43,379 nt of DNA from Candidatus Limnocylindrales bacterium (GCA_040883225.1 JBFLKP010000115.1:1-43379), one strand, 5' to 3'. Positions 3,571-25,956 are shown, numbered from the stretch's first letter. Program-made: numbers and translations. Notes: a model not told the origin generated them from the sequence alone.

Positions 3571-3579
3571 ATTGTGGCA
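3571..3579 (-). promoter_or_regulatory. Putative extended -10 promoter (TGcCACAAT) for glyQS
   Basis: TGnCACAAT about 55 nt upstream of the GTG, in the recO-glyQS spacer, inside a short CCCTG..CAGGG inverted repeat. Confidence 0.45.
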
Positions 3580-3592
3580 GGGAACGGCGATC

Positions 3593-6815: not shown

Positions 6816-8263
6816 CAGCGGTCCGGGGCGTCCTCGGTGTGGGTTCCGTCAGCGCCCTCGGTCGCGGCCTCGGCCTCGGCCGCGGCGGACTTCGAGGCCT
6901 GGGCATGGCGCTCGCGGATGCGTGCCGGCACGCCCAGGGCCATCTCCCCATCGGGCACGTCCCGAGTCACCAGCGAGGCGGCACCGGTGTAGGCGCCCGC
7001 ACCCACGGTGACCGGCGCACGCATGATGGTGTCGGAGCCGATGAAGGCACCGTCGCCGATCTTCGTGCGGTGCTTCATGCGGCCGTCATAGTTCGCGGTG
7101 ATGGAGCCGGCGCCGATGTTGACCCTCTCTCCGACCTCGGCGTCGCCGAGATAGCTGAAGTGGTGGCTCTTGGTGCCGGCCCCGATCGTGCTGTTCTTGA
7201 CCTCGGCGAAGTTGCCCAGCTCGACCCGTGGGCCGATGTAGGAGCCCTTGCGCACGTGGCTGAACGGGCCGATGGTGGCGTCAGCGTCGACCGTAGCGCC
7301 CTCCAGCACGCTGGCCCAGACCACGGTGCGCTCGCCGACCGTGGTGTCGAAGACCTGGGAGCCGGCGCGGATGACCGCATCGCGCTCGATGACCGTCTGG
7401 CCACGAAGCACGACGTTGGGCTCGAGGGTGACGTCCTCGGCGATGCGCACGCTCTGGTCGATGTACGTGGTGGACGGGTCCAACATCGTCACGCCCGCGG
7501 CCATGTGGGCCTCGAGGATGCGGAGGCGCATCTCGAGCTCGGCGTCGGCCAGCTGACGACGATCGTTGATGCCCAACAGCGTGCCGTCGTCCTCGACCTC
7601 GAGGGTGACCACGGCGCGGTCGTCGCGGCGCGCCAGCGGGATGAGCTCGGGCAGGTAGAGCTCGCCGCTGACCGGGCTGGGCTCGACCTCGCCGATGCGC
7701 AGGCGCAGCCACTCCGCGTCGAAGGCGTAGAGCCCGGCGTTGATCTCGGTGATGCCGCGCTGCTCCTCGGTCGCGTCACTGAACTCGACCACCCTGGTGG
7801 TGCGGCCCTCGGCGTCTCGGGTCACACGCCCGAGCGCGGCCGGATCCTCCATGTCCACGCAGATCAGCGCCACCGCCGCATCGACGTCGCGCCGGGCCTC
7901 GACCAGGTCAAGCAGCACGTCCGCGTCCACCAGGGGGACGTCGCCGGAGAGCACGAGGATCTCGCGCACTTCGGTCGGCAGCTCACGCAGTGCCGTGGCG
8001 ACGGCGTCGGCGGTCCCTCGTGGCTCCGCCTGGATGGCGAAGTCAGCCGCTCCCGCGAAGACGTCGGCGACCTGAGCGACCGGCGGGCTGATGACGACGG
8101 TCGGACGGTTGCCGGTCGCGGCCTGGGCAGCGTCAAGGACATAACCCAGCATGGGTCGGCCGCAGACGGGGTGGAGCACCTTGGGAGTGCTCGAACGCAT
8201 TCGGGTACCAAGCCCCGCGGCCATCACGACCGCCACGAGGGGCTGTGGTTGGTGGGTGTTCAC
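6815..8263 (-). CDS. glmU: Bifunctional UDP-GlcNAc pyrophosphorylase / glucosamine-1-P N-acetyltransferase
   Basis: AAGLGTRMRS..PK, EINAG, ELYL, GNFAEVK, HFSYLGDA, NYDG and hexapeptide repeats. Confidence 0.96.
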   Translation of the reverse strand: MNTHQPQPLVAVVMAAGLGTRMRSSTPKVLHPVCGRPMLGYVLDAAQAATGNRPTVVISPPVAQVADVFAGAADFAIQAEPRGTADAVATALRELPTEVREILVLSGDVPLVDADVLLDLVEARRDVDAAVALICVDMEDPAALGRVTRDAEGRTTRVVEFSDATEEQRGITEINAGLYAFDAEWLRLRIGEVEPSPVSGELYLPELIPLARRDDRAVVTLEVEDDGTLLGINDRRQLADAELEMRLRILEAHMAAGVTMLDPSTTYIDQSVRIAEDVTLEPNVVLRGQTVIERDAVIRAGSQVFDTTVGERTVVWASVLEGATVDADATIGPFSHVRKGSYIGPRVELGNFAEVKNSTIGAGTKSHHFSYLGDAEVGERVNIGAGSITANYDGRMKHRTKIGDGAFIGSDTIMRAPVTVGAGAYTGAASLVTRDVPDGEMALGVPARIRERHAQASKSAAAEAEAATEGADGTHTEDAPDR

Positions 8264-8318
8264 GAAGCGGCGGTACCGCCCTTCGGTGATGGAGGGTGTT
8301 CGGGCATCAGGTTGGATG

Positions 8319-8348
8319 AATCTAGGGGTCGCGCCCTCGGGGTGTCAA
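8319..8348 (-). promoter_or_regulatory. sigma70-type promoter for glmU: -35 TTGACA, 18-nt spacer, -10 TAGATT
   Basis: Perfect -35 at 8348-8343 and -10 at 8324-8319, about 55 nt upstream of the glmU GTG. Confidence 0.7.
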
Positions 8349-8370
8349 ACGCCTGACCCAGCCATGGACC

Positions 8371-8376
8371 TACCAT
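8371..8376 (+). promoter_or_regulatory. Putative -10 (TACCAT) for ferritin
   Basis: TANNNT about 33 nt upstream of the ATG, with a GAGG SD. No clear -35. Confidence 0.4.
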
Positions 8377-8409
8377 GTCAGGACGAACCAGCCACAGACG
8401 AGGTCTGCC

Positions 8410-8940
8410 ATGTCCCGTTTCAACGAGGCCCTCGACAAGCACATCGCCAACGAGTTCGCCGCTTCGCAGCAGTACGTCGCCATCGCGGCCTGGTACGACG
8501 ACCAGACGCTGCCGCAGCTGGCAGCCCACTTCTACCGCCAGGCGGTCGAGGAACGGAACCACGCCATGATGATCGTGCAGTACCTGCTCGACGCGGGTGC
8601 CAAGGTCACCATCCCCGGTGTGGAGGCGCCCAGGACGGCGTTCGACTCGTATATCGAGCCGGTGCGGATGGCGCTCGAGCAGGAGCGGGAGGTCACGCGC
8701 CTCATCACCGACCTGGCCCACCTTGCGCGCGAGGAAGGCGACCTCGTGGGAGAGCAGTTCCTGGCCTGGTTCCTGGCCGAGCAGCGAGAGGAAGAGGCGA
8801 GCATGGCCGACCTCGTGCGCACCGTAGAACGCGCGGCCGAGACCAACATCCTGCTCGCCGACGACTACCTTGCGCGCAACGCCGTGGGCGACGGCGGAGA
8901 GGATGCCGGTGCCCCCGAGGCGGCCGGCGGTGCCCTCTAG
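8410..8940 (+). CDS. Non-heme ferritin (FtnA/BfrB-like)
   Basis: Ferroxidase-centre pattern NEFAASQQY, EERNHAM, EQERE and EQREEE in a four-helix bundle. Confidence 0.92.
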   Translation: MSRFNEALDKHIANEFAASQQYVAIAAWYDDQTLPQLAAHFYRQAVEERNHAMMIVQYLLDAGAKVTIPGVEAPRTAFDSYIEPVRMALEQEREVTRLITDLAHLAREEGDLVGEQFLAWFLAEQREEEASMADLVRTVERAAETNILLADDYLARNAVGDGGEDAGAPEAAGGAL

Positions 8941-9005
8941 GCCCAGATCACCGATGGACCGGGGCGAAGGCCGGCGTCGCCGACGATCGACCTCGAGCGC
9001 CCGCT

Positions 9006-9386
9006 TCAGCGCTTCTGGGCGATGACCTCGATCTCGACGCGGATGTCCAGCGGCAGCCGGGCTGCCTGGATCGTGGTGCGCGCAGGATACGGTTCGGGCA
9101 GGTAGGAGCCGTAGACCTCGTTGAAGGCCTTGAAGTCGTCCATGTCCGCGAGATAGCAGGTCGACTTCACGACGTCGCTGAAGTCGAGCCCCGTCTCCGC
9201 GAGGACGGCCTTGATGTTCTCCATCGTGCGCCGGGTCTGAGTGGCCACATCGCCTTCCACGATGGTGTTCGTCTCGGGGTCCATGGGCCCCTGGCCGGAG
9301 CAGAAGACGAGGCTGTCGGTGACGATGGCCTGGCTGTAGGGCCCGAGCGCGTTGGGGGCCTTCGATGTCTGGATGCGCTGCTTCAC
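9006..9386 (-). CDS. ridA: RidA/YjgF reactive enamine/imine deaminase
   Basis: APxAxGPYSQA, SGQ, FNEVY, PART and VEIE motifs. Confidence 0.93.
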   Translation of the reverse strand: MKQRIQTSKAPNALGPYSQAIVTDSLVFCSGQGPMDPETNTIVEGDVATQTRRTMENIKAVLAETGLDFSDVVKSTCYLADMDDFKAFNEVYGSYLPEPYPARTTIQAARLPLDIRVEIEVIAQKR

Positions 9387-10303
9387 GAGTCCTCTCCCCG
9401 TCCGAGCGTGGACGTGCTGATGATGGTGGCGCCCTCGAGCTCGGGCGCGCTGCTGGCGCCGAGCGCGGCGGCGGCGCGCGTGGCGGCCGATTCCGAAGGA
9501 TAGACGGCCACGAGGGTCGGCCCCGAGCCCGTCAGCAGGACCGCGCGGCCGATGGTCCGCGACACGAGATCGCGCGTGGCGGCCAGCTCCGGCAGCAGCC
9601 GAGCGGCCGGGGGCCAGAGGTCGTTGGCGTCGCGTAGCACCGCGGTCGACGCGGCCAGCATCATGCCGTCGACACCCTCGCGCAGCAGGGCGACCACCTC
9701 GTCCACCCGCTCGAGCGCCCCCGCCGACGGCGCACGGTCGTACTCCGCGAACACGTCGGCGGTCGAGAGCCGGGCGCTCGGCGTCACCAGCAGGATGCCC
9801 GCTGCTGGCTCGGTCGAGGGCAGCGGAGAGACGCGCTCGCCGATGCCCTCGACCAGCGAGGCCGGGTGGCCGGCGGAGAAGAAGGGCACGTCGGCGCCGA
9901 CGCGGAGAGCCGCTCCGAGACGCTCCGCGGGATGGAGCCGCACGCCCCAGGCTGCGAGGGCGAGGTCGATGGCTGCGGCCGCATCGGAGCTGCCGCCGCC
10001 GAGCCCGGCGGCGGTCGGGATCCGCTTGCGCAAGCCGAACCGCAGCGATGGCAACGAAGGGTCGATGGCCGCGCGCAGGTGGGTGGCCGCACGCAACACG
10101 AGGTTGTCGCCGACGGCCACCTGCTCGCCTTCGACCTCGAGGTGGTCGGCCGGAGCACCGGGGACGGGCTCGACCTCGAGACGGTCGTGCAGGGCCAGCC
10201 GCAGGAACACCGAGCGCAGCTCGTGATAGCCGTCGTCGCGCCTGCCGGTGATGGCGAGGGCGAGGTTGATCTTGGCGTGGGCATCGGCCTCGAAGCGGGT
10301 CAC
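9383..10303 (-). CDS. ispE: 4-diphosphocytidyl-2-C-methyl-D-erythritol kinase (MEP pathway)
   Basis: AKINLAL..RDDGYHEL, KRIPTAAGLGGGSSD, GADVPF and TGSG. GTG start overlaps the rsmA stop. Confidence 0.93.
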   Translation of the reverse strand: MTRFEADAHAKINLALAITGRRDDGYHELRSVFLRLALHDRLEVEPVPGAPADHLEVEGEQVAVGDNLVLRAATHLRAAIDPSLPSLRFGLRKRIPTAAGLGGGSSDAAAAIDLALAAWGVRLHPAERLGAALRVGADVPFFSAGHPASLVEGIGERVSPLPSTEPAAGILLVTPSARLSTADVFAEYDRAPSAGALERVDEVVALLREGVDGMMLAASTAVLRDANDLWPPAARLLPELAATRDLVSRTIGRAVLLTGSGPTLVAVYPSESAATRAAAALGASSAPELEGATIISTSTLGRGEDS

Positions 10304-12233: not shown

Positions 12234-12814
12234 TGGTCCAGCACCTCCGGTGGGTCGTCGGGATCGGGCACGTCGCCCGGGTCGTCGAGCAGCACGTCGG
12301 TCGCGTACCGACCACGCTTGCTCGAGAGCAGTCCCTGCATCTCGGGGGTCTCGAGGCGGTCCGTGGTCATGATCAGGGCATCCTCGCCGTTGTCGGTGTA
12401 GTAGCGCGGGCGAACGCCGACAGGCTTGAAGCCGAACGCCCCGTAGAGCCGGCGCGCGGCGGCGTTGGTGAGCCGGACCTCGAGCGTGCACACGGCGGCT
12501 CCGAGGTCGGCGGCCAGCTCCATCAGCTCGACCAGCAGCAGTCCCCCGATGCCACGACGGCGATAGGCCGGGAGCACGGCGAAGGTGGTCACGTGGGCCT
12601 CATCGACCATCAGCCAGATCCCGGCATAGCCGATGACCCGCTCTCCCGCGCGCACCACCAGGTAGCGCGCAAGGCGGTTGGTCTCGAGCTCCTGGCGGAA
12701 GGCGTACGGCGGCCACGGCGTCGGGAACGAGGCGCTCTCGATGGCGTGGACGGCAGGGATGTCCTCGGCGGACATCTCCGCGACGACCAGCCTTACCGGA
12801 GGTCGGGCGACCAT
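12230..12814 (-). CDS. rimI: Ribosomal protein N-acetyltransferase RimI (GNAT)
   Basis: FPTPW, DEAHVT, RRRGIG, TLEVR..N and RYY..GEDALIM. Lies between tsaB and tsaD. Confidence 0.92.
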   Translation of the reverse strand: MVARPPVRLVVAEMSAEDIPAVHAIESASFPTPWPPYAFRQELETNRLARYLVVRAGERVIGYAGIWLMVDEAHVTTFAVLPAYRRRGIGGLLLVELMELAADLGAAVCTLEVRLTNAAARRLYGAFGFKPVGVRPRYYTDNGEDALIMTTDRLETPEMQGLLSSKRGRYATDVLLDDPGDVPDPDDPPEVLDQ

Positions 12815-13467
12815 CCCAGGTCCTCGGCAGCTCGCTTCACGCCGCGCGGCAGCGCCACGTAGGCAGGCGTGAGCTCGGCGACATCGTCGGTCTGGCCGGC
12901 TTCGACGCGGGCGCTCGCCAGCTGCAGCAGCGCGGCGGCCAGGCCCTCGACGGCCGCTGCGCCGACGCGTGCGGCCTCCTCGCCGACGAGCGTGGGGTCC
13001 ACGTCGACGGCCACGGCCGTGGCGCCGGCCAGCGCATGGGACAGCTCGCCAGAAGCGATGAGCAGCGGATCGTGCCCGGCCCACGCGAGGTAGTGGTCCC
13101 GAGCACCGGCGGGCAGCACGACCGGGGCGTCGGCGGCAGCGCCCTCGACCGTGGCTGCGAGCCTGAGGGCATCTGACGACATCACGCCCACCAGCGGCAA
13201 CTCACGGGCATAGGCCACCGTCTTGAGCGTGGCGAGCCCCACACGCAAACCCGTGAACGAGCCCGGACCGGTACCCACGGCCAGCGCGGCAACGTCATCG
13301 AGCGAGCGTCCGGCCTGGCCCAGCACCTCCTCGATCTGCTCGAGCACGTGTGCGCCGTGGCGATGACGAACCTCGCGGCGGCTGATCGCGAGCGGCAGGC
13401 TGGAACCGAGAGCCACGATGCTCGCGCGAGTCGAGGTGTCGACCGCGAGGATGAGGCGGTCGCTCAC
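12793..13467 (-). CDS. tsaB: t6A biosynthesis protein TsaB
   Basis: LAVDTS and GTGPGSFTGLRVG. Confidence 0.93.
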   Translation of the reverse strand: MSDRLILAVDTSTRASIVALGSSLPLAISRREVRHRHGAHVLEQIEEVLGQAGRSLDDVAALAVGTGPGSFTGLRVGLATLKTVAYARELPLVGVMSSDALRLAATVEGAAADAPVVLPAGARDHYLAWAGHDPLLIASGELSHALAGATAVAVDVDPTLVGEEAARVGAAAVEGLAAALLQLASARVEAGQTDDVAELTPAYVALPRGVKRAAEDLGWSPDLR

Positions 13468-13991
13468 CGCTGCACCATCCCTGTGTCGGCGGCTGCCAAC
13501 CGCCAGGCCGCAGCGGCCTCGAGGTACCGGCGGGCGATGTCGCCGTGGCCGCTCATCTCGATGTCGCGAGCGTCCGCGCCGGTGGGCTCGATGGCCACGG
13601 TCAGGCGGGCTGGATCGAGCTGGGCATCGAGGCGGTCGGCCCACTCGCTGAGGGTCACGCCGTCGTCCTGTCGTTCATCGAGGAGCCCGCCGGCGAGGAT
13701 CTCGTCGGCGCCCTCGAGGCGATAGAGGTCCTGGTGGAAGAGCCTGAGCCGGCCCTCGTACTCGGCCATGAGCGTGAAGCTGGGACTGTTGACCACGTCG
13801 TCGATGCCAAGGCCCACGGCGAAGCCCTTGGCGAACTGCGTCTTGCCCGCGCCGAGCGGGCCCACCAGCGCCAGACGGTCGCCGGCCTGAGCGGCCGGCG
13901 CGAGAGCTGCCGCGAGAGCCCGGGTGTGCTCGGCAGAGGTGGTCGTGACGCGCAGGCTGAGGGGCCGGAGGTCCGGATCGGTCATGGTCAC
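13464..13991 (-). CDS. tsaE: t6A biosynthesis ATPase TsaE
   Basis: Walker A GPLGAGKT, SPSFTL, HQDLYRL and EW. Confidence 0.95.
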   Translation of the reverse strand: MTMTDPDLRPLSLRVTTTSAEHTRALAAALAPAAQAGDRLALVGPLGAGKTQFAKGFAVGLGIDDVVNSPSFTLMAEYEGRLRLFHQDLYRLEGADEILAGGLLDERQDDGVTLSEWADRLDAQLDPARLTVAIEPTGADARDIEMSGHGDIARRYLEAAAAWRLAAADTGMVQR

Positions 13992-13998
13992 TGGCCGC

Positions 13999-14004
13999 AG
14001 GTTA
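13999..14004 (-). promoter_or_regulatory. -10 element (TAACCT) 7 nt before the tsaE GTG; its TAA is the upstream gene's stop codon
   Basis: TAACCT-GCGGCCA-GTG. Confidence 0.5.
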
Positions 14005-15075
14005 GCCGAGTCGCTCCAGAAGGGTCAGTGGGACGCAGTGGCGCTCGATCCCGCCTTCGGGCCCGGGAAGCTCGACGAAACCGCCGGGGGCATAGGCTCC
14101 GCCGGGCCAGCGGCGCGGACCAGAGAGCCCGACCAGCAAGCCCTCGTGGTCGCGATGCTCGCCGGCCACCACGCGGACGGTGTCGGGCGGACGCGAGGCT
14201 GCCTCGAGCAATGGCGCCGGGTCCCCGTCGACGATGAGCATCCTGGAGCCGGGCACGATGCCGGCCTGGCGGCCGTCGGCGGCCACCAGCAGGTCCCACA
14301 GGTGCGAGGGGATGGGCGCGCGGCCGTAGCCCCCGAGAGCGACCAGCCCGAAGGGTGCGGCTGCGTGCAGGGACGCCTGCTGGCGCGCCTCCGATGAGCT
14401 GAGCTGGCGCAGGTCGCGGCTGGCCACGCCGCCGGTGACGACGGCTGCGACACCGATGGCGCGGGCGCGTGAGAGCGCTTCGATGTCGACGCGAGCGCCG
14501 ACCACGAGGATGGCGCCGGCGGCCCCGACATCGATCCTGGAGGTCTGCAGCTCGGCGTTGGGCGCATCGACGGCGACGAGGATGCGACCGATCGTGGGCC
14601 GGCCCCAACCGATGCGCGCGTCGACGGCGAGCCCGTGGACACGAAGGTCCACGCGGGCGGGGGTGACGGCCTCGACGACGCCGCTGGCAGGGGCATCGAT
14701 GATGACCTCGCCGCGGCCGGCCACGAGGCGGGTGACACCGTCGCGACCGTGCTCACACACGCGGGTGCGGTAGGTGCCATCGCCCGAGCGCCGGCCGAGG
14801 CGACCAGAGGACTCGACAGGAACGTCGTCGAGCACCGCCCCCGGCGGGATACCGATGATCGCGGCGCTGGTGTCGACCTCGACCGCGACCTGCTCGCGGA
14901 AGTGCTCGATGATGGGCTGTCCGAGCTCGACCGGCTGTCCCGGGCCGACCAGCGGGCGGTCGGCAAGGCCGAGCGGGATCCGCAGCAGCCGGCCGCTGCC
15001 GGGGCTAGCAGCCGGCGGTACGAAGCGACCGGGATCGGGGCGCGGGTCGCGGTCGGGCTGGGACGGGGTCATCAC
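14002..15075 (-). CDS. Uncharacterised protein, partner of the GlmL-like protein (barrel-sandwich hybrid-like, alpha/beta and KOW-like segments)
   Basis: GTG 15075 overlaps the upstream stop (alternative ATG 15072). Segments LVGPGQPVELGQPI, IIDAPASGVV, GAILVVGA..ALSRARAIGVAAVVTGG and DTVRVVAGEHRDHEG. Confidence 0.75.
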   Translation of the reverse strand: MMTPSQPDRDPRPDPGRFVPPAASPGSGRLLRIPLGLADRPLVGPGQPVELGQPIIEHFREQVAVEVDTSAAIIGIPPGAVLDDVPVESSGRLGRRSGDGTYRTRVCEHGRDGVTRLVAGRGEVIIDAPASGVVEAVTPARVDLRVHGLAVDARIGWGRPTIGRILVAVDAPNAELQTSRIDVGAAGAILVVGARVDIEALSRARAIGVAAVVTGGVASRDLRQLSSSEARQQASLHAAAPFGLVALGGYGRAPIPSHLWDLLVAADGRQAGIVPGSRMLIVDGDPAPLLEAASRPPDTVRVVAGEHRDHEGLLVGLSGPRRWPGGAYAPGGFVELPGPEGGIERHCVPLTLLERLG

Positions 15076-16688
15076 TCGCTCCCGGCCCACACGGGCGCTT
15101 CCCAGGTCTCGAGCCGGCTGCGCCGGGCTTCCCCACCGTCGGGCAGGTCCAGGGGGATGGGGCGAGTATCGACGAAGAGGCCTCCGAGGCCGCCATTCAC
15201 CTCCATCGAGATCGGTGCGCCCTCGCTGCCGAGGATGGTGCCCTCGCCCGGGTCGATGCCGATGCTTGCGGAGATCCCCGGCGGCAGGTCCACCAGCTGG
15301 AGCTCTCCGGGGTCGAGCTGCAAGCGCTGGTCTCCGAGGACGCTGGCGATGCTCATGCGAGCCGGTGCCTTGCCCTTCTTGCGCTCCGGGATGGTGCCCG
15401 TGACGATGGCGCTGCCGAGCGGCAGAAGGCAGTCGCCCATGAGGTCCCCCAGCAGACGCTGGCGGTCGGCTTCCACGGGCAGGGCACCGAGGGGGGCCAG
15501 CACGCCCGCGTGGTCGTGGAGCAGGCTCACCGCTCCGGCGCGGCGAACGCCGTCGACGAGGGCCAGCGCCACCGCGGCCGGCGGCAGGCCCGCGAAGGCG
15601 CCACCGGAAAGCGCCACGACACCGGCGCCACCGCGGTCCGCGTCGCCGGCATCGGCCCAAGCCGCCTCGAGGCGTTCGAGCGCGGCGCGGAGCGCGGCCA
15701 GGCGCAAGCGGGCACCGTTCGACCCGGCAGCGGCCCAGGGCCGGAGCACCAGGTTGCGCACGCCGTCGAGCCAGGCCGCCGGGTCGCCCCCGCCGAGCGT
15801 CGACCAGCGCAGCACGGCATCGCCCGCGTCGGCGTCAGTAAGCAGCGCGCGCGGGAACGAACCAGCTGTGGCATACACGCCGTGGCCCTGTTCGATACCA
15901 GGAGCGGCGAGCGTTCGAGAGCCGGAAGCGACGCCGATCTCGATGCCATCGACGCTGGCCTCGAGCACGGTCGCGAGCGAGTGGACCGAGGCCCGCAAGG
16001 CGGATCGGGCATCGATGCCCGGCGTGGCCCCGCGGTCGGCGAGGAAGCGGCCGACCTGCAGCGCTGCGCTGCGCAGCTGCGACTCCGACCGGCTGGATAC
16101 TCGCTCGGGTGCAGGCAGGGAGAAGAGCCGGCCGTCGGGGATGCCCTCGGGACGGTCCACGAAGGGGCCGCTGGCGACGACCGCGAGGTCGTCACGGAAC
16201 CGCGCGAGCGAGGCCACCCGCGGCCACAGCTGCTGGGCAGCCCCCAGCTCGTTCTCCTCGGCCGCGTCCCGGCCACCCATGACGACCGCGTGCAGGTCGG
16301 GGTCGAGGCAGGCTTCACCAAGAGCGACGATGTCCGGTGCGGGCCCGAAGAAGCGCCCCTCGATGGTCCAGCCGGCCCCATCGAAGGCCCGTTCGAGCAG
16401 CTCGCCGGCCGCCTCGCTGGCGGCCACCAGCACGCCTCGCGGGGGCGGGCCGGTGAAGACCTCGAGGCGAGACCAGTCTCGCCAGCCCTCCATGGAGCCA
16501 GCCACCGAGGCGTCCGTGCGAGCGACGCGCCAGGCCAGGTCCTCGAGCACGGACTCAGGGTCGATACCGACCGGGGCCGACGCGGCCGCGGCCATGCGAT
16601 AGCGGCCGTCGACCGGTGCGATGAGCGCGGCCGTGGTGCTGACCGTGCCACGGTCGAGCGTGAAGAAGGCGGGCGTGTCCTGGGTCAC
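15072..16688 (-). CDS. Glutamate mutase L (GlmL/MutL-reactivase)-like protein, actin/ASKHA fold, long form
   Basis: N-terminal TLDRGTVSTTAAL..DGRYR..A.AP phosphate-1-like motif, VVMGGRD, GIEIG, LSGG and C-terminal GGLGGLFVDTRPIPL.LP. Family call is from recalled similarity. Confidence 0.7.
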   Translation of the reverse strand: MTQDTPAFFTLDRGTVSTTAALIAPVDGRYRMAAAASAPVGIDPESVLEDLAWRVARTDASVAGSMEGWRDWSRLEVFTGPPPRGVLVAASEAAGELLERAFDGAGWTIEGRFFGPAPDIVALGEACLDPDLHAVVMGGRDAAEENELGAAQQLWPRVASLARFRDDLAVVASGPFVDRPEGIPDGRLFSLPAPERVSSRSESQLRSAALQVGRFLADRGATPGIDARSALRASVHSLATVLEASVDGIEIGVASGSRTLAAPGIEQGHGVYATAGSFPRALLTDADAGDAVLRWSTLGGGDPAAWLDGVRNLVLRPWAAAGSNGARLRLAALRAALERLEAAWADAGDADRGGAGVVALSGGAFAGLPPAAVALALVDGVRRAGAVSLLHDHAGVLAPLGALPVEADRQRLLGDLMGDCLLPLGSAIVTGTIPERKKGKAPARMSIASVLGDQRLQLDPGELQLVDLPPGISASIGIDPGEGTILGSEGAPISMEVNGGLGGLFVDTRPIPLDLPDGGEARRSRLETWEAPVWAGSE

Positions 16689-16695
16689 GCGTCAG

Positions 16696-16701
16696 ATGGT
16701 A
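16696..16701 (-). promoter_or_regulatory. -10 element (TACCAT) 7 nt before the GlmL-like GTG; probable leaderless promoter
   Basis: TACCAT-CTGACGC-GTG. Confidence 0.55.
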
Positions 16702-16728
16702 GCCGGGTCCGGCGCAGGCGGCCTGCGA

Positions 16729-17046
16729 TCAGGCGTCGAGGCCGAACTCCGCGTCGAGCTCCTCGAGGCGATCGATGAGGCGCTCGATGCCATCGTCGTC
16801 GGCGAGCAGCGAGCTGGCTCCGGGGATCGCGCCACCGAAGATGCGCCGGACGGCCGGGTCGAAGAAGAGCATGCCCAGCCCATCGAGCGAGCCGGCGCCG
16901 CGATTGGCCTCGAGGAAGAGCACCGCCGGCACGGTCACACCGCGCATGGTGATCTCGCGCGCGACGATCTCGATGTCGTCCCCGTCGAACCCTCCGATAT
17001 CAGGCGACTCATGGAGTTGCTCGGTGGTCTCCGTCGGTCGTAGCAA
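16729..17046 (-). CDS. Small helical hypothetical protein
   Basis: Strong SD GAGGAGG 8 nt before the TTG. Protein-like sequence VAREITMRGVTVPAVLFLE..MLFFDP..IERLIDRLEEL. Confidence 0.72.
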   Translation of the reverse strand: MLRPTETTEQLHESPDIGGFDGDDIEIVAREITMRGVTVPAVLFLEANRGAGSLDGLGMLFFDPAVRRIFGGAIPGASSLLADDDGIERLIDRLEELDAEFGLDA

Positions 17047-17157
17047 ACCGCATTCCTCCTCGAGACACGACGAGACTTCACGGCTGTCGCCAAGGGCCCC
17101 TCTCTGACCGTCGGCATCGTCATCACGAAGTGTCTGCGCCGGCTGCGACCGAGAGTC

Positions 17158-18306
17158 CTAGTCCGCTCTAGCCGCACCGGCCGATGGATGGTACACCCGG
17201 GCCAGCCGATGGGCCATGCTTGTCAGCACCTCCCAGGCGATGGTGTTGCGCCAACGCGCCAGTTCCCCGGCGGTGATCGACTGGCCACCTTGGGAACCCA
17301 GCAGGACGAACTCCTCGCTGTAGTCGAGACCGTCCAGATCGGTGACGTCGACGGTCACCGCGTCCATCGACACGCGGCCCACGAGCGGCAACCGCCGGCC
17401 GCGCACGATGACCTCCGCGCCGGGCTGGGTGGCACGCAGATAGCCGTCGCCGTAGCCCACCGGAAGGACCGCGATCCGGGACGGCCGCGGCGCCGTCCAG
17501 GTGCCGCCGTAGCCCACGCTGCCGCCTTCGGGTACGCGCGAGAAGGCGATGGGCCGGGCCCGCAGGGACATGGCCGGTCGCAACCGGGCGGCGGCTTCCT
17601 GCGCGTCGGGCGCGATGGGCAGGCTCTCGTCGAGCACACCGTAGGACGCGACGCCCGGGCGCACGAAGTCGAGCGCGGGCTCGTCGCCGGTGAAGATGCC
17701 GCCGGAGGCTGCCGCGTGGCGTGGTGGGACCGGGACACGAGCCTCACGCAGGGCCGTGGCCGCGATGTCGAAGCGCAGCAGCTGGCCGTCGGAGGTGGGC
17801 GGATCCTCCGGGCTGTGCAGGTGCGACCACAGGCCGGCCAGCTCGAAGCGGGGGTCGGCGTGGGCTGCGGCCGCGACCGCGACCACGTTCTCCGGCTGCA
17901 GCCCGCCACGCCCCATCCCGGTCTCGACGCCGAGGTGGATGCGCACCGGGCGGCGGCCCTCGGGCAGGGCGCGTCCGATGGCCTCGAAGTCGGCGGCTGA
18001 CATCACCGGCAGCTCGACGTCGATGGCGAGCGCCTCGGCGACCGCCCCGTGCGGCACCGGGTAGAGCATGATGATGCGCTTGGACACGTGGGGCCGCAGC
18101 TCGATGGCCTCATCGAGCGTGGCCACACAGAACGCGTCCACGACCGGCTCGATGGCGCGGCTGACCGGGATCATGCCGTGCCCGTAGGCCTCGGCCTTGA
18201 CCACCTGCGCCACGGCGGCCTCGCCCACGACCGAGCGGATGAGGGCGATGTTGTGACGGATGGCATCGAGGTCGATATCGAGCCAGGCGCCGCGACGGTC
18301 GGTCAC
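17158..18306 (-). CDS. alr: Alanine racemase-family PLP enzyme (atypical residues)
   Basis: IDLDAIRHN, VVKAEAYGHG, ETGMGR, VRPG, VGYGG, PVGYGDG and GRVSMD. Confidence 0.9.
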   Translation of the reverse strand: MTDRRGAWLDIDLDAIRHNIALIRSVVGEAAVAQVVKAEAYGHGMIPVSRAIEPVVDAFCVATLDEAIELRPHVSKRIIMLYPVPHGAVAEALAIDVELPVMSAADFEAIGRALPEGRRPVRIHLGVETGMGRGGLQPENVVAVAAAAHADPRFELAGLWSHLHSPEDPPTSDGQLLRFDIAATALREARVPVPPRHAAASGGIFTGDEPALDFVRPGVASYGVLDESLPIAPDAQEAAARLRPAMSLRARPIAFSRVPEGGSVGYGGTWTAPRPSRIAVLPVGYGDGYLRATQPGAEVIVRGRRLPLVGRVSMDAVTVDVTDLDGLDYSEEFVLLGSQGGQSITAGELARWRNTIAWEVLTSMAHRLARVYHPSAGAARAD

Positions 18307-19235
18307 GCTCCGCCACCGGGCGCTTCGAAGCCAAGGCGGCGGCCGCGGTCGGCTACGGCCGCGAGGTGGCGTCGCACGCGCGGGATGGCCGGTAGCAGGT
18401 CGGTGGCCATGAGCCCGGCGTCGCCGAGGTGCCCGCTGAGGTCCTCGCCGGCGCGGGCGTGGAGGTAGACCCCCAGAGCGGCGGCCGCGAACGGGTCCAG
18501 CCCCTGCCCCACCAGCGAGGCGACGACCCCGGCGAGCACGTCGCCGGTGCCGCCGGTGCCTAGGGCCGGGACCTCGAACTCCGCGGTCAGGTGACGTCCG
18601 TCGGGGGCGGCGATGATGGTGTTGGCACCCTTGAGGACCGTGATCACGCCCCACTCCGCAGCGGCGGCGATGGCGGCGGCACGGCGCTCGTGATCGGCCT
18701 CGCCAGCCGAGCGACCGAGCCTGGCCAGCTCGCCGGGATGCGGCGTGAGCGCGACCGGCCGGCCCAGGCGGGTCCACCAGCCCGGCGCGTCGGCCAGCGC
18801 CGCGAGGGCGCCGGCATCGACGACCGCCGGCGGCCCCTCGGCGCGAAGCAGGCCGGCCAGCGCGCGCGCATTGGCTCGTGACGGCGGCAGACCCGGTCCC
18901 AGGAGCAGCGAGTCGTGGGGCAGCTCCAGCAGCGCGGCCACGGCCGCGGGTGGGTCGATGACGAAGGGTGCGGTCTCGGGCAGGCCGCGCGTGATGAGCT
19001 CCGGCACGCGCCCGGCGATGATCGGCTGCAACGAGGCCGGCACAGCGAGCGTCACCAGGCCACAGCCAGCGCGCAGCGCCGCCGTTCCAGCCATGAGCGC
19101 GGCACCGACATAGTCGAGCGATCCGGCCATGACCACGACGCGTCCGAACGTGCCCTTGTGGCCGCGCGGGTCGCGCTCGGGCAGCAGCCCGGCCGCGGCG
19201 GCCTCGTCGATGACGTTGGCGTCAGCGGCCGTCAC
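18303..19235 (-). CDS. nnrD: ADP-dependent NAD(P)H-hydrate dehydratase (stand-alone, no NnrE domain)
   Basis: HKGTFG, GAALMA..ALRAGCGLV, GPGL, VDAGAL, TPHPGE, LKG and GGTGDVLAG. Confidence 0.93.
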   Translation of the reverse strand: MTAADANVIDEAAAAGLLPERDPRGHKGTFGRVVVMAGSLDYVGAALMAGTAALRAGCGLVTLAVPASLQPIIAGRVPELITRGLPETAPFVIDPPAAVAALLELPHDSLLLGPGLPPSRANARALAGLLRAEGPPAVVDAGALAALADAPGWWTRLGRPVALTPHPGELARLGRSAGEADHERRAAAIAAAAEWGVITVLKGANTIIAAPDGRHLTAEFEVPALGTGGTGDVLAGVVASLVGQGLDPFAAAALGVYLHARAGEDLSGHLGDAGLMATDLLPAIPRVRRHLAAVADRGRRLGFEAPGGGA

Positions 19236-19783
19236 TCGCGCTCCCGCTCGATCGCGGCGTCGGCGCCGGCCTCGGCGGCACGGACCTCGGCATCGAGGTC
19301 GCGGAGCCGGCGCATGCGCGCCATGAGCTGCTTCTCGCGGTCATCCATGCGTGCTTCCATGTCGATGGGAAAGACGAACTCGCCACCCTGGGTCCGGACG
19401 CCGAAGGCGATGGCGACCGCGAACTCGCGCTCGTGGCTGATCGACACCGCGACCCGCTCCATGCCCAGCTGGTTGGCCCGCGCCAGGGCTCGGTCGTGGA
19501 GCCGGCACATGGGCGCGCCGGTGGGCAGGCGGATGATCTCGATCTCGCGCCAGCCGACCCCGCGTACGCCGAGGCCCAGCACCTTCGAGACCGCCTCCTT
19601 GGCGGCCCAGCGACCGGCGAAGTTCTCCGGTCGGTCACGCACGTAGGCATCCTCGTGGTCGGTCAGCACGCGCTTGGCGAAGCGCCGGCCGTGCTTCTTG
19701 ATGGCCGCCCGGATGCGCTCGACCTTGATGATGTCGATGCCCACCTCCTGGGCGCCGGGCGGGGGCGTGGGCAGCTCGCTCAC
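19232..19783 (-). CDS. acpS: Holo-[acyl-carrier-protein] synthase with C-terminal extension
   Basis: GIDII, FAGRWAAKEAVSK, G.P and SISH. Confidence 0.93.
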   Translation of the reverse strand: MSELPTPPPGAQEVGIDIIKVERIRAAIKKHGRRFAKRVLTDHEDAYVRDRPENFAGRWAAKEAVSKVLGLGVRGVGWREIEIIRLPTGAPMCRLHDRALARANQLGMERVAVSISHEREFAVAIAFGVRTQGGEFVFPIDMEARMDDREKQLMARMRRLRDLDAEVRAAEAGADAAIERERE

Positions 19784-21609
19784 TCGACCGTCACCGACTT
19801 GGCCAGGTTGCGTGGCTGGTCCACGTTGGTGCCCCGCGCGACGGCCGTGTGATAGGCGAAGAGCTGGAGCGGGATGACCGCCAGGGCCGGGCTCAGCATC
19901 TCCACGGTCGGTGGCACCCACATGATGTCGTCGGCCACCGCCTTCATGCGGTCATCACCCTCGGTCACCACGGCGATGACGCGGGCATCCCGGGCACGGC
20001 CCTCCATGAGGTTGCTGACGAGCTTGTCGTGCACCGCCGTGCGAGTGGCCACGGCCACCAGCGGTACCTCCGCGTCGAGCAGCGAGATGGGCCCGTGCTT
20101 GAGCTCGCCGGCGGCGTAGCCCTCCGCGTGCACATAGCTCACCTCCTTCAGCTTGAGCGCGCCCTCGAGTGCGGCCGGATAGGTGATGCCACGGCCGACG
20201 TACATGTAGCCGCGTGAGCCCAGGTAGCGGCGTGCCAGCTCGGCGGCCGGTGCCTCGTTGAGCTCGAGCGTGCGCTGGGCGTTGGCGGGCAGGGCTCGCA
20301 GGCCCTCCACGAGGGCCTTCTCGTAGAGCCCGTCAAGATGCCCGCGCGACTTCGCCACTTGGGCGGCCACGAGCAGCAGCGTGACGACCTGGGTGACGAA
20401 GGTCTTGGTGGCCACGACGGCGATCTCCGGGCCGGCCTGCAGGAAGAGCACCGCGTCGGCTTGGCGGGTGATGGCCGAGCCGACCGTGTTGGTCACGGCC
20501 ACGATCGGGCAGCCCCGCTCGCGGGCGAGCCGCGTGGGCGCCAGCGTGTCCGCCGTCTCGCCCGATTGCGTAACGGCGATGACCAGCGTCTTCTGGTCCA
20601 GCGGTGGCGGATCGTAGCGGAACTCGGAGCCGACGTTCCAGCGCGCGGGGATGCCCGTCCAGACCTGCAGCGCGGTCGCCGCCACGGCGGCGGCATAGGC
20701 CGCCGAGCCGCAGGCGACGAGCTCGATGCGCTCGATGTACGGGAGGATCGGCCCGAGGGGGTCCAGCTCCGGCACCCGCACCTCGTCCCCGTGGACGCGG
20801 CCGGCGATGGCGGCCCGGATGGCCTCCGGCTGCTCGTGCATCTCCTTGAGCATGTAGTGCTCGTAGCCGCCCTTCTCGGCGGCCTCGATATCCCAATCGA
20901 TGTGACTGACCGGGCGCTCCTGCTCGCGACCGACGATGTCGGTGATGGTGACCGAGCCAGGCCGGATGTCAGCGACGTCACCTTCCTCGAGGAAGATGAC
21001 CTCACGTGTGTGCGCCAGCACCGCGGCCACGTCGGAAGCCAGGAACGCCTCGTCGCGGCCCAGCCCGACGATGAGCGGCACGTTCATCTTGGCCCCGACC
21101 ACGCGGTCTGGCTCGCCCTTGTGGATGACCGCGAGGGCATAGGCGCCGTGGGCGTGCTGGAGGGCGGTGCGCACCGCGGCCGAGAGGTCGCCGTCATAGG
21201 CCTCCTCCACGAGGTGCGCGATGGCCTCCGTGTCGGTCTCGCTACCGAGCACATGGCCCGCGGCCTCCAGCTCGGCACGCAGCTCGATGAAGTTCTCGAT
21301 GATGCCGTTGTGGATGACGGTCAGCTCGCCGGTGCAGTCGATGTGAGGGTGGGCGTTGAGGTCGTTGGGGCGACCGTGGGTGGCCCAGCGCGTGTGCCCC
21401 AGGCCGGCGGTCGCGGGGGGTGTGCCTTCCGCGAGCGACTCGCGCAGGACGGCGATCTTGCCCGCCCGCTTGCGTACGAAGAGGTCGCCATCCTGGGTCG
21501 AGAGTGCGATGCCGGCCGAGTCGTAGCCGCGGTACTCGAGGCGCGCGAGGCCCTCGAGCAGCACCGGGGCCGCCTGCTGGTGTCCGACGTAGCCGACGAT
21601 CCCACACAT
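19780..21609 (-). CDS. glmS: Glutamine--fructose-6-phosphate aminotransferase
   Basis: MCGIVG, LEYRGYDSAG, GHTRWATHG, QSGETADT, ELKHG and PRNLAKSVTVE. Confidence 0.98.
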   Translation of the reverse strand: MCGIVGYVGHQQAAPVLLEGLARLEYRGYDSAGIALSTQDGDLFVRKRAGKIAVLRESLAEGTPPATAGLGHTRWATHGRPNDLNAHPHIDCTGELTVIHNGIIENFIELRAELEAAGHVLGSETDTEAIAHLVEEAYDGDLSAAVRTALQHAHGAYALAVIHKGEPDRVVGAKMNVPLIVGLGRDEAFLASDVAAVLAHTREVIFLEEGDVADIRPGSVTITDIVGREQERPVSHIDWDIEAAEKGGYEHYMLKEMHEQPEAIRAAIAGRVHGDEVRVPELDPLGPILPYIERIELVACGSAAYAAAVAATALQVWTGIPARWNVGSEFRYDPPPLDQKTLVIAVTQSGETADTLAPTRLARERGCPIVAVTNTVGSAITRQADAVLFLQAGPEIAVVATKTFVTQVVTLLLVAAQVAKSRGHLDGLYEKALVEGLRALPANAQRTLELNEAPAAELARRYLGSRGYMYVGRGITYPAALEGALKLKEVSYVHAEGYAAGELKHGPISLLDAEVPLVAVATRTAVHDKLVSNLMEGRARDARVIAVVTEGDDRMKAVADDIMWVPPTVEMLSPALAVIPLQLFAYHTAVARGTNVDQPRNLAKSVTVE

Positions 21610-21612
21610 CGA

Positions 21613-22950
21613 CTAGCGCTCCTGGTTGAGGCGCTCGGCGGCGAGGGCGGCGAGGTCGTCGGCCAGGCGCAGCACCCGAGCCCTGTCGCGACCCTCGACC
21701 ATCACGCGCAGCCTCGGCTCCGTGCCCGACGGGCGTACCACCACCCGGCCCTCACCCTCGAGCTCTTCCTGCGCGGCCGCCACGGCGTCGGCGAGCACCC
21801 GGTCGGCGCGCCACTCCTTGGTCTTCACGCGCACCGCACGCTGCTCCTGCGGGTCCAGCGAGATGGCCGCCGCAAGCTCGCTCAGGGGCCGCCCGGTACG
21901 CGCCAGGATGTCGAGGATCTCGAGGGCCGTGACGATGCCGTCTCCGGTGGTGGTGTGCTCGCGCACGATGACGTGACCGCTCTTCTCGCCGCCCAACCCT
22001 GCGCCGGAGACGAGCATGGAGTCGACGATGTAGCGGTCGCCGACCCTGGTGCGCAGGACCCGCCCCCCGGCCTGCTCCACGGTCCGGGCGAGGCCCCCGT
22101 TGCTGAGGATGGTCACGACCATGGTCTCCTCCGCGAGGGCACCGCGAGCGAGCCGGTCGAGGGCGATGATGCCCAGCAGCTGGTCGCCATCCACGACCCG
22201 GCCACGCTCATCCACCGCCACGCAGCGATCGGCGTCGCCGTCGAGGCTGAAGCCGACGTCGCCGCCCTCACGGGCCACGACGGCAGCCAGCGTCCCGGGC
22301 ACGGTGGCACCACAGTCACGGTTGATGTTGCACCCGTCGGGCTGGTCGAAGTGCGCCGTCACCGACGCGCCGGAGGCCGCCAGGATCTCGGCGGCCACGG
22401 CGCTGGCCGAGCCGTTGGCACAGTCGACGTGGAGCCGCAGGTCGGAGCCGATGCGCCGGGCCATGCCCAGGCGGTGCCCGAGGTAGTGACGCATGTCGGC
22501 GCGAGCATCGACGACGCGACCGAGATCATCGTTGCGCGGGCTACCCAGCTCCTCCGAGCGGATGATGAGCGTCTCGAGCTCATCCTCCATCTCGTCGTCG
22601 AGCTTGAGGCCCTTGCCGCTGAGGACCTTGAGGCCGTTGTCCTCAGCCGGGTTGTGGGAGGCACTGACCATGACCCCCACGGCGTACTCGCCGACGGCCG
22701 TGACGTGCGCCAGCGCAGGCGTGGGGCAGACCCCCAGCGCATAGACGTGGGCCCCGGCGCTGGTGCCGCCGGACATCAGCGCGGCCACGAGCATGTCGCC
22801 CGAGCGGCGGGTGTCCTGGCCGACCAGGATGCGTCCGCCGGGACCGGCCAGGCGTGTGGCCAGGGCACGGCCGAGGGCGTGGGCCAGAGAGGGCTTGAGA
22901 TCCTCGTTGGCCACGCCCCGGATGCCGTCGGTGCCGAAGAGCTGGCTCAC
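21613..22950 (-). CDS. glmM: Phosphoglucosamine mutase
   Basis: FGTDGIRG, SASHNP, DGDADR, GGEKSGH and RPSGTEP. Confidence 0.96.
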   Translation of the reverse strand: MSQLFGTDGIRGVANEDLKPSLAHALGRALATRLAGPGGRILVGQDTRRSGDMLVAALMSGGTSAGAHVYALGVCPTPALAHVTAVGEYAVGVMVSASHNPAEDNGLKVLSGKGLKLDDEMEDELETLIIRSEELGSPRNDDLGRVVDARADMRHYLGHRLGMARRIGSDLRLHVDCANGSASAVAAEILAASGASVTAHFDQPDGCNINRDCGATVPGTLAAVVAREGGDVGFSLDGDADRCVAVDERGRVVDGDQLLGIIALDRLARGALAEETMVVTILSNGGLARTVEQAGGRVLRTRVGDRYIVDSMLVSGAGLGGEKSGHVIVREHTTTGDGIVTALEILDILARTGRPLSELAAAISLDPQEQRAVRVKTKEWRADRVLADAVAAAQEELEGEGRVVVRPSGTEPRLRVMVEGRDRARVLRLADDLAALAAERLNQER

Positions 22951-24161
22951 TGGGCTTGGCCGACCGTGACGCGCAGGGTGGGAGGATCGACGCGCACCAG
23001 CGCGGTGCCACGAGGCGTTCGGACGATGGGCATGACCGCATTGTCGCCCACCACGAGCTCGTCGACCGGCACCTCCACGCTGACCTCGTCCGGGGTGAGC
23101 TCGTCGAGCTGCTGCACCGAACCGGAGAGGGTCACGCTGACCGACGGTTCCTCGAGCTGGTACGTGAAGCCGGGCTGCGCGCCGGTGATGGCGGTGCCGA
23201 TCTCGTAGCTGCGCGAGCCCAGCGCCTCGGTGAAGGTGACGATGACCGTGACGAGGCCCTCACCCGTCGCCGTGAGCTCCTCGGACAGCTCCAACGGCAC
23301 CTCGGCCACCAGCTCGACCTCCTGCTCGGAGATGTCGACGGGGGCGGTATCGATCCGATCGAGGCCGCGCACGTCCGGGCTCTCGCCGCTGACGGTGACG
23401 GTCGCCGGCAGCACCGAGACGTTGTCGACGCGCCGCCCGCGCGCAGGTTCGCCCACGAGCTGCGGGATGACCGGCAGCGTGGCATAGGCCAGCTGGTAGC
23501 CCACATCCGAACGGACCCGGGCCGTCGATGGCTGGACGTCGACACCGGGCACGATCGCGCCATCGGCGTCGAAGGCCTCGAGCGGCACGTTCACGTCGAT
23601 GTTGATGCCGCTGGCGTCGACCACGAACCGGCCCTCCACGCTACGCACGTTCTGCAGGCGAGAGGAAGCTCCGCTGACGGTGGCCTGGTTGGGCTCCACG
23701 GTGATGGGGCCGAGCTCGATGCCTTCGGGCAGCGGGCCGTGCTCGACCTCGACCGGCAGCAGCCGTGAGATGACCGCGTCGACGCGCACGGTCCTGCCCT
23801 GTGGTTCGTAGTCGACCACGCGGACACGGGGGTCGACGGGGAAGACGTCCACGGGCACCGCGACGGTGTTGGCGCCCGGACGTGGCTGCACCGACGAGAG
23901 GTCGATGGACGCGCGGAAGCTGTCGCGCGTGAGGGCCTCGGCGACCTCGTCCGAGGCGCGGTACTCGATGGATTCGACGACGCCGGGGTCGTCGAGCAGG
24001 GCGCCACCCGAGGGAGCATTAAGCACCTCGATGGGGATGGGGCCCTCGAAGGTGCGCGTGGACTCGGAGATGGCCACGCCCATGTAGAGCACCACGGCCA
24101 GGCCCAGGGCGGTCACCTTGAGCGGCCAGTAGCTGAAGAGCAGGCGGCTGATGAGGCTCAT
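22947..24161 (-). CDS. cdaR: CdaR/YbbR-repeat regulator of diadenylate cyclase
   Basis: Single N-terminal TM (WPLKVTALGLAVVLY) and repeated P..V.VSG beta-rich YbbR-like units. Lies between cdaA and glmM. Confidence 0.88.
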   Translation of the reverse strand: MSLISRLLFSYWPLKVTALGLAVVLYMGVAISESTRTFEGPIPIEVLNAPSGGALLDDPGVVESIEYRASDEVAEALTRDSFRASIDLSSVQPRPGANTVAVPVDVFPVDPRVRVVDYEPQGRTVRVDAVISRLLPVEVEHGPLPEGIELGPITVEPNQATVSGASSRLQNVRSVEGRFVVDASGINIDVNVPLEAFDADGAIVPGVDVQPSTARVRSDVGYQLAYATLPVIPQLVGEPARGRRVDNVSVLPATVTVSGESPDVRGLDRIDTAPVDISEQEVELVAEVPLELSEELTATGEGLVTVIVTFTEALGSRSYEIGTAITGAQPGFTYQLEEPSVSVTLSGSVQQLDELTPDEVSVEVPVDELVVGDNAVMPIVRTPRGTALVRVDPPTLRVTVGQAQ

Positions 24162-25805: not shown

Positions 25806-25956
25806 CCTGGACCAGTGTCGGACAGCGGCGGACCCGGGACGATGCACCGAAGGTCCCGGGCTGCGGATCGGTGTGGTGGCCGACGGTCCGGGGTGGTTCC
25901 CGCCCCGGACGGGCCATGCCGCGTTCCCACGGCCGCGCCCTACGCGCGGCGCAGGA

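Follow-up and report, generated by a model that had tools for sequence, protein, structure and literature searches.

What does a GlmL-like protein do at a locus that has no B12 mutase gene? The locus in question lies in a stretch of 43,379 nucleotides (nt) from a Candidatus Limnocylindrales bacterium (GCA_040883225.1, JBFLKP010000115.1:1-43379; the whole of this stretch is referred to as the window), in which three consecutive genes, g1, g6 and g7, stand between alr and tsaE. An earlier note, made from the sequence alone, had described the three as non-housekeeping genes and one of them as encoding a GlmL-like protein. In Pfam and NCBIfam scans none of the products, of 105, 538 and 357 amino acids (aa) respectively, has a family assignment. 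We find that g6 encodes a distant, long-form relative of MutL/GlmL with a modelled actin-like (ASKHA) fold, that it is predicted to bind the g7 product, and that the three genes are conserved and homologous to parts of a larger operon of the Chloroflexota. There appears to be about an even chance that the g6:g7 pair is a nucleotide-dependent switch or scaffold heterodimer which, together with g1, is the remnant of a membrane-associated system.

Genes were called from the G+C content of third codon positions (GC3 frame plot) and open reading frames (ORFs), the G+C content of the stretch being about 70%. Four minus-strand genes were found in 14002-18306. Since the racemase among them is an ordinary alr, three genes and not four are without assignment. 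The parts of the module are:

16729-17046, minus strand: g1, which opens the module and encodes a small, acidic product, 105 aa (ORF)
16689-16728, minus strand: spacer of 40 nt between g1 and g6, with a probable -10 box (sequence)
15072-16688, minus strand: g6, divergent long-form MutL/GlmL-like actin-fold (ASKHA) protein of 538 aa (profiles, AlphaFold2 model)
14002-15075, minus strand: g7, predicted partner of g6, 357 aa, or 356 aa from the ATG (ORF, homologues, model)

Relationship of g6 to GlmL and conservation of the module

Direct searches with g6 gave zero Pfam matches at E≤10, nothing in NCBIfam and no FtsA or PilM model. The MutL family PF13941 (cut-off 27 bits) was not matched by g6, and a search of the whole genome with this family gave none above the cut-off and none at g6. 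A profile built from 24 homologues and run against 1.84 billion representatives picked up 747 proteins at E≤0.001, with matches to proteins 560-610 aa long at E values between 1e-18 and 1e-23. When 27 of the profile matches were scanned with Pfam, 15 passed PF13941 at 86-254 bits, 2 fell just under it and 10 were blank. Alignment of the g6 family with hhalign against 16 such long MutL proteins, which score 102-254 bits on PF13941, gave a probability of 99.8 and an E value of 6.2e-30 over 507 columns, end to end. The GlmL-like identity proposed for the 538-aa protein is borne out in this way, through profiles only, and as judged from these alignments g6 is related to GlmL/MutL distantly and by ancestry only.

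The AlphaFold2 model of g6 (predicted local distance difference test, pLDDT, 87.8; predicted template modelling score, pTM, 0.89) is two-lobed and actin-like. Foldseek returned 166 matches at E≤0.001; the 50 listed are ASKHA proteins, with PilM at the top (E 1.2e-7), followed by xylulokinases, FtsA, acetate kinase and HgdC among others, at low TM-scores of 0.21-0.34. Structural comparison by VIA gave FtsA (1e4f_T) at Z 11.3 and a root-mean-square deviation (rmsd) of 5.0 over 228 aligned residues, and g6 resembles FtsA and PilM in no more than the shared fold. Searches of PDB sequences with the g6 and g7 profiles gave matches at chance level only. In the model, residues ~81-222 form an inserted flavodoxin/Rossmann-like domain with Z scores of 10-11 to B12-binding domains; equal scores are reached by CheY receivers and by Rossmann domains of the GFO/IDH type (VIA), and therefore no claim about cobalamin is made from this insert.

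Canonical GlmL of the Chloroflexota, found in three glmS-glmE-glmL loci (L098, L099, L102), is 466-469 aa long, matches the long-form profile only at positions 12-462 and has no g7 nearby. With GlmL, g6 shares a homologous ASKHA core and the same inserted alpha/beta domain. In contrast, residues ~422-507 of g6 form a beta domain followed by a terminal helix, neither of which is present in canonical GlmL, and the beta domain (with the highly conserved stretch GGxxGxxIDxRxxPLxLP...RR..L..W; aligned over 422-531 by hhalign and also in an alignment of 20 sequences) accounts for the ~110 residues by which g6, at 538 aa, and its long-form relatives exceed GlmL. Besides having no PF13941 match, g6 differs from GlmL in being paired with g7 instead of glmS and glmE, in having alr, g1, g7 and tsaE as neighbours, and in its degenerate phosphate and GGxDGG-like motifs.

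Invariant columns in the alignment of g6 homologues are D12, G14, G248, G252 and G362. Around what we take to be the phosphate 1, phosphate 2 and adenosine motifs, alignment with true GlmL and long forms indicates that the basic residue of phosphate 1 is gone from the window's family (LDRGTVSTTA vs. DFGSTYTK), as are the GGxDGG-like motif of the insert (GGRDAAE) and the AGN motif. At phosphate 2 the family has Glu, or in some members D, H or S, where the other forms have Asp, and the glycines and the GG of the adenosine motif are retained. Catalysis that is weaker or changed would fit this pattern, and selection would now bear mainly on the g6:g7 complex. In family f69 (loci L092 and L096), the phosphate-2 glycine of g6 is lost.

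A further observation concerns L062 (genome G151, 7958-9820) and other genomes of the genus labelled g5 (from a tally that includes G038, flagged as unpublished), in which the match to g6 is split by a gap of ~100 residues after residue 176. The split g6 lies in one frame of at least 620 aa, and the gap looks like a genus-specific insertion within the flavodoxin-like insert.

Gene order was scored in 26 related loci (L001-L026) from Chloroflexota metagenome-assembled genomes (MAGs); the related genomes are not independent of each other, and all samples are partial. Immediately upstream of g6, g1 is found in 26/26 loci. Downstream of g6, g7 follows in 25, the contig of the 26th (L017) stopping within g6, and tsaE follows g7 in 24, the contigs of L008 and L017 stopping before it. 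The alr gene precedes g1 in 25 of the 26, the exception being L019 (6464-7969), where alr is absent between nnrD and g1 and ~290 nt are found instead. There are 226 homologues of g6 (~540 aa; unnamed or hypothetical) and 191 homologues of g7 of similar length, none with a family, and g7 was found in 76 of 81 genomes of the class (a tally that includes G335, flagged as unpublished), among them 22 of the 23 of the window's own family. The frames of the module are intact in the window and give single full-length matches in most related loci. Ratios of nonsynonymous to synonymous substitution (dN/dS; Nei-Gojobori, against loci L001-L003) were:

g1: 0.11-0.17
g6: 0.17-0.20
g7: 0.17-0.18
alr: 0.12-0.21
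tsaE: 0.12-0.19
nnrD: 0.21-0.32

Values for L008 (g6 0.34, g7 0.35) rest on a cut or frameshifted match and were not used. The module of g1, g6 and g7 is genuine, conserved and under selection like that on alr and tsaE. No Pfam or NCBIfam family is matched by g1, which starts with TTG and has AGGAGGA 8 nt upstream.

The g6:g7 pair and the Chloroflexota operon

The start of g7 overlaps the stop of g6 in ...GAG TGA TG ACC, where g7 may begin either at the GTG, with a GTGA overlap, or at the following ATG, with a one-base overlap; the overlap that the earlier note had read here as GTGA is confirmed with these two readings. Modelled alone, g7 reaches a pLDDT of 67.6, and 86 in complex with g6. Its predicted domains are an N-terminal barrel-sandwich hybrid, a conserved alpha/beta middle part that folds poorly alone and a C-terminal KOW/SH3-like barrel. 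By VIA, residues ~24-148 match RnfC (8ahx_C) at Z 8.3 (rmsd 2.6, 65 aligned, 26% identity), the N-terminal domain matches NqrA (4u9o_A) at Z 8.1 (rmsd 2.7, 62 aligned) and biotinyl domains at ~Z 7, and the C-terminal barrel matches the KOW domain of NusG (1m1g_A) at Z 8.0 (rmsd 1.7, 51 aligned). The likeness to RnfC and NqrA is confined to the small N-terminal barrel-sandwich domain; their remainder, the cofactor sites and the Rnf/Nqr membrane subunits were not found. Pfam RnfC_N is not matched by g7 itself, and one homologue reaches 19.6 bits, below the cut-off of 25.6; one homologue has Pfam KOW at 22.6 bits (cut-off 22.3). Another protein homologous to g7 carries the label Brevefilum fermentans, a cultured member of the Anaerolineae. 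In the ESM Atlas, the nearest clusters to g7 are unnamed Chloroflexota proteins, and at a score of 0.93 there are clusters from Bacillota (RnfC_N in 25% of members) and Planctomycetota, which serve as leads only.

Prediction of the g6:g7 complex gave interface scores (ipSAE) of 0.88, 0.88 and 0.89, with 0.00 for the best of 3 controls, and the runs share at least 96% of their contacts. The mark used for this score is reached by 116 of 157 solved complexes and by 2 of 215 mismatched pairs, a calibration that is only roughly valid for alignments of our own such as those used here. We know of no solved complex of this kind, and the score is therefore unlikely to reflect memory of a solved structure. 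On the g6 side the modelled interface comprises the insert at 119-166, helices 302-327, the loop 367-369 after the adenosine motif and the C-terminus, and on the g7 side residues 106-111, 217-222, 248-250 and 321-328; invariant residues at the interface include D308, R311 and W318 of g6 and H108, G109, D111, G248 and G250 of g7. The prediction supports binding and does not demonstrate it, and the predicted heterodimer fits the proposal, made in the same note, of a repurposed actin-fold complex.

Two side observations concern g7. In its f69 homologues (L092, L096) the C-terminal KOW-like part is missing or replaced by an acidic tail. In proteins P0307 (866 aa) and P0356 (724 aa), parts of g6 are joined to parts of g7; either a natural fusion or a merged gene call may lie behind this, and neither protein was used as evidence.

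The 40-nt spacer between g1 and g6 has no Shine-Dalgarno sequence and holds GCTACCATC (16703-16695), within which TACCAT at 16701-16696, resembling a -10 element, ends 7 nt ahead of the GTG of g6. GCTACCATC is kept 6-8 nt before this GTG in 26/26 related loci, the remaining spacer being variable, and TACGAT or TAGCAT stands at the same place in all 3 loci of more distant genera (L060-L062), so that a TAnnAT box is found 6-8 nt before the GTG in 29/29 relatives. TACCAT is probably the -10 box of a leaderless transcript, and the own leaderless promoter suggested earlier for the GlmL-like gene is upheld at that strength. A scan for terminators gave 0 sites.

Positions 12500-19500 are also found, with almost no letter changed, in contigs of four runs filed as oligo-dT RNA-seq of sediment, all of one study. 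Depth in these RNA-filed runs is even, ~3-8 over 7 kb with every neighbouring gene included, and the contigs are without 5' ends. Such even, low depth is odd for poly-A selection and suggests carry-over of DNA. Transcription and carry-over are inseparable in these runs, and therefore no claim of expression is made.

Across Anaerolineae and other Chloroflexota, the long MutL-like gene takes sixth place in a packed operon that includes four membrane-protein genes:

g1: small protein, ~85-120 aa
g2: DUF6754
g3: polytopic membrane protein, ~206 aa
g4: membrane protein with a zinc ribbon, 290-1500 aa (shortest, at ~290 aa, in the sister family)
g5: polytopic membrane protein, ~220 aa
g6: long MutL-like protein
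g7: partner of g6
g8 (often present): proline-rich membrane protein

Neither g3 nor g5 has a Pfam family, and a limited search of the literature found no paper on the long form or on the operon. Among 20 wider loci (L060-L079), hand-chosen from the matches and not a random sample, 11 have the full set g1-g7, 2 are partial at the end of a locus or contig, 3 from the window's own family have g1, g6 and g7, and 4 have g6 and g7 only; g7 lies downstream of g6 in 18 of the 20. The sister family f3, which belongs to the same class and contributes 4 of the 11 full sets, has the full operon exactly between alr and tsaE. Outside the class it is found at other places and not beside tsaE.

The g1 of the window is homologous to the first gene of the operon (phmmer, down to 1e-23), and a g1 profile matches only the frame of that gene in the genome (E 1.8e-16). 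No membrane genes g2-g5 lie between g1 and g6 in the window, where the gap is only 40 nt, and none of the genome's 33,061 frames was matched at E≤0.01 by profiles of g2-g5. By family, g3 was found in 24 of 26 genomes of f3, 0/23 of f1 (the window's own), 0/26 of f69 and 0/4 of f2; the sole weak match in f1, in the window's genome at E 4.4e-4, lies inside a frame of 943 aa. Since g1, g6 and g7 of the window are homologous to genes 1, 6 and 7 of the operon and g2-g5 are lost, the module is a reduced form of it, differing in the lack of g2-g5 at the locus and in a much more diverged g6. The long-form profile matches g6 of the window's family at E 1e-23 to 1e-33 and that of the sister family mostly at 1e-44 to 1e-73, with one at 1.9e-18 and 1 of 15 unmatched. 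In families f69 and f70, g6 still adjoins g7 and only the broad profile detects it.

Two membrane proteins of the operon have further features. The g8 of L066 (7653-8201) has an N-terminal membrane anchor, a proline/threonine-rich stretch, LPNTG, a hydrophobic tail and a basic end, the LPNTG region resembling what we take to be a sortase signal. In g4 of the same locus (2261-4195) and its homologues, repeated acidic PEWL/PDWL peptides stand ahead of the membrane segments.

The explanation that we favour, at about even odds, is that g1, g6 and g7 represent what remains, as a soluble core, of a seven-gene operon widespread in the Chloroflexota. The products of g6 and g7 would form an obligate heterodimer in which g7 wraps over the insert, helices 302-327 and the loop after the adenosine motif of g6, and the two genes would be read from their own promoter into a message that is leaderless, couples their translation and probably continues into tsaE. 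The pair would serve no B12 mutase and would most likely be a nucleotide-binding switch or scaffold complex. In relatives it may belong to an undescribed assembly at the envelope, docking there on four membrane subunits; in the window's family, with the membrane subunits lost and the ATPase motifs partly degenerate, the complex would act on some target in the cytoplasm. Of the links offered in the earlier note, that to the envelope gains some support from the membrane genes of the operon and none from glmMS, alr or cdaA; those to D-amino acids and to tsaEBD are left with adjacency only, which is limited to the window's class, the operon being at other places elsewhere.

Several points weigh against this explanation. 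A role as switch or scaffold, like the link to the envelope, is an inference. The g6:g7 score expresses the confidence of a model and comes from our own alignments, and loci L070 and L073 carry g6 without a recognisable g7. Decay of the g6 motifs could mean changed rather than lost catalysis, and a sigma-70 consensus scan for promoters gave 0 sites. Absences in MAGs, and in a source genome that is 90.7% complete and in 312 contigs, are no proof. SEDS proteins (PF01098), found in 269 of the 301 Chloroflexota genomes sampled (five of them, G145, G038, G227, G173 and G272, flagged as unpublished), are kept in the g6-less families f7 (12/13), f16 (12/12), f22 (9/9), f4, f17, f25 and f26.

A simple link of g6 to peptidoglycan was rejected, SEDS proteins being present in families without g6.

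It is possible, if doubtful, that g6:g7 is the cytoplasmic engine of an undescribed envelope machine of the Chloroflexota, stripped in this lineage of soil and freshwater to a soluble, catalytically weakened actin-fold pseudo-ATPase complex with a new cytoplasmic role. If true, the window would hold a natural minimal version of that machine, and the GlmL fold would have been recruited at least twice, for B12 mutase repair and for a membrane system. More generally, the long form with a partner of no known family, often accompanied by four orphan membrane proteins, constitutes a phylum-wide system. The three-gene version is its smallest natural form, and with only two or three proteins, all soluble, and an interface predicted with confidence it offers the easiest route to biochemistry and structure.

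Alternative functions and the B12 mutases

An ATP-dependent metabolic enzyme of the hydantoinase, oxoprolinase or acetone-carboxylase kind, with g7 as second subunit, is an unlikely identity for the pair. The Pfam description places MutL near the hydantoinase branch; one long-form relative has a weak Hydantoinase_A match (E 0.0044), Foldseek matched g6 to acetophenone carboxylase (5l9w_b, E 9.4e-6) and N-methylhydantoinase (9h03_A, E 9.9e-6), and the tight two-subunit complex that is predicted and the housekeeping-like selection would suit an enzyme. However, there is no Hydantoinase_B-like partner, g7 is modelled as small beta domains in which no cofactor motif was seen, the phosphate and GGxDGG-like motifs are degenerate in the window's family, and the ancestral operon consists of four membrane proteins and no metabolic enzyme beside the module.

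The FtsA and PilM matches described above (Z 11.3 and E 1.2e-7) are the best for the whole core, and in relatives g6 lies beside membrane-protein genes; both could be taken to mean that g6 acts like FtsA, PilM or MreB, as an actin-like protein that forms polymers or tethers membranes, with g7 as its adaptor. Any ASKHA protein reaches such matches, though, the TM-scores are low, the genome has an FtsA of its own and the membrane partners are lost from the window's family, and we consider such a role quite unlikely.

Replacement of FtsA by g6 was rejected in its own right, the genome encoding a separate FtsA (111 bits).

A function shared with tsaE-tsaB-rimI-tsaD, either in tRNA modification or in translation, in which g7 would touch RNA or ribosomal proteins through its KOW-like domain, would be in keeping with the gap of only 10 nt between g7 and tsaE, with a neighbourhood that holds in the class, and with the KOW-like barrel (Z 8.0, and Pfam KOW at 22.6 bits in one homologue). 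We regard it as very unlikely, given that the operon is not beside tsaE outside the class, that KOW and SH3 barrels are common folds and that the KOW part of g7 is missing or diverged in f69.

The remaining functional alternative, in which g6 would be the chaperone that reactivates some cobalamin enzyme whose gene lies elsewhere, stands only a slim chance. According to a figure legend in PMC4682846, MutL/GlmL is a chaperone with a part in the reactivation of glutamate mutase, and the homology of g6 to GlmL, the match of its insert to B12-binding domains and six ORFs with such a domain in the genome would all be in its favour. Against it, the insert scores equally well with CheY and Rossmann domains, and the position of what we take to be the DxHxxG motif reads SEAAGE in g6. 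The absence of a B12 mutase gene from the window, as originally reported, is confirmed. In the window's genome (90.7% complete) we found no GlmE, methylmalonyl-CoA mutase, KamD, OAM_alpha or EutB, the blanks for KamD and OAM_alpha being weak because their controls matched nowhere. No mutase gene lies beside g6 in any of 46 related loci with flanks of several kb (L001-L026, L060-L079).

In a survey of 301 sampled Chloroflexota genomes, the long-form g6 (E≤1e-10) was present in 182, a tally that includes G038 and G227, flagged as unpublished, and its distribution by family was all or none. Dropping the flagged genomes shifts this tally, and likewise those of g7 and SEDS given above, by at most their number; the loci read all come from other genomes, and each claim has support beyond the flagged ones. 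GlmE was found in 6 of the 301 and in none of the 15 genomes each of f1 and of the sister family f3. With no cognate mutase adjoining or co-occurring, the orphan status earlier ascribed to the GlmL-like gene stands. An automatic annotation of the long form as "glutamate mutase L / MutL" would accordingly mislead on the B12 metabolism of the phylum.

The reactivases of diol and glycerol dehydratase (DdrAB, PduGH), and EutA, are ASKHA-type ATPases that act together with a second subunit and exchange subunits with the target enzyme. For g6:g7, too, an ASKHA complex of two subunits is predicted. The difference is that no sequence or family match to these reactivases was seen and the genome has no EutB; diol dehydratase was not searched for. 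The beta subunit of the DdrAB/PduGH type is small, whereas g7 has 357 aa and three domains.

The six ORFs with a B12-binding domain lie on contigs C266, C51, C106, C224, C184 and C103 (loci L080-L085). Four are short frames of 223-274 aa and one frame has 1234 aa; the short ones may encode corrinoid proteins of methyltransferase systems.

That the larger operon has left behind no more than three decaying genes devoid of function is hardly credible in spite of the loss of 4 of 7 genes, the degenerate ATPase motifs and long-form scores far below those of the sister family, since the frames are intact, dN/dS (0.11-0.20) equals that of alr and tsaE, g7 is kept in 22/23 family genomes, many residues are invariant and the promoter box is conserved.

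Genes flanking the module

From 25 kb to 9 kb the gene calls lie on the minus strand throughout. The genes outside the module, in the order of transcription, are:

25068-25847, minus strand: TPR protein (family scans)
24158-25012, minus strand: cdaA (family scans)
22947-24161, minus strand: YbbR/cdaR-like (family scans)
21613-22950, minus strand: glmM (family scans)
19780-21609, minus strand: glmS (family scans)
from 19232, minus strand: acpS (family scans)
18303-19235, minus strand: nnrD, NAD(P)HX dehydratase (family scans)
17158-18306, minus strand: alr, ordinary alanine racemase, flank outside the module (TIGR00492, Pfam)
13464-13991, minus strand: tsaE, flank outside the module (Pfam TsaE, TIGR00150)
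downstream of tsaE, minus strand: tsaB, GNAT (rimI-like), tsaD, ksgA and ispE (family scans)

Two assignments differ from those of the earlier note. The racemase at 17158-18306, which it had counted into the module as atypical, is a plain alr (TIGR00492 at 277 bits, cut-off 168; Ala_racemase_N at 188 bits and Ala_racemase_C at 137.5 bits); of the genome's three matches to Ala_racemase_N it is the best. Just upstream, where alr had been placed, lies the gene of an NAD(P)HX dehydratase (nnrD). On the other side of the module, tsaE begins 10 nt past the stop of g7. A GTGA overlap (18303-18306) joins the stop of nnrD to the GTG start of alr, and as judged from it these two genes are translationally coupled as well. 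In the alr product the stretch VVKAEAYGHG is seen, which is presumably the motif of the pyridoxal-phosphate lysine.

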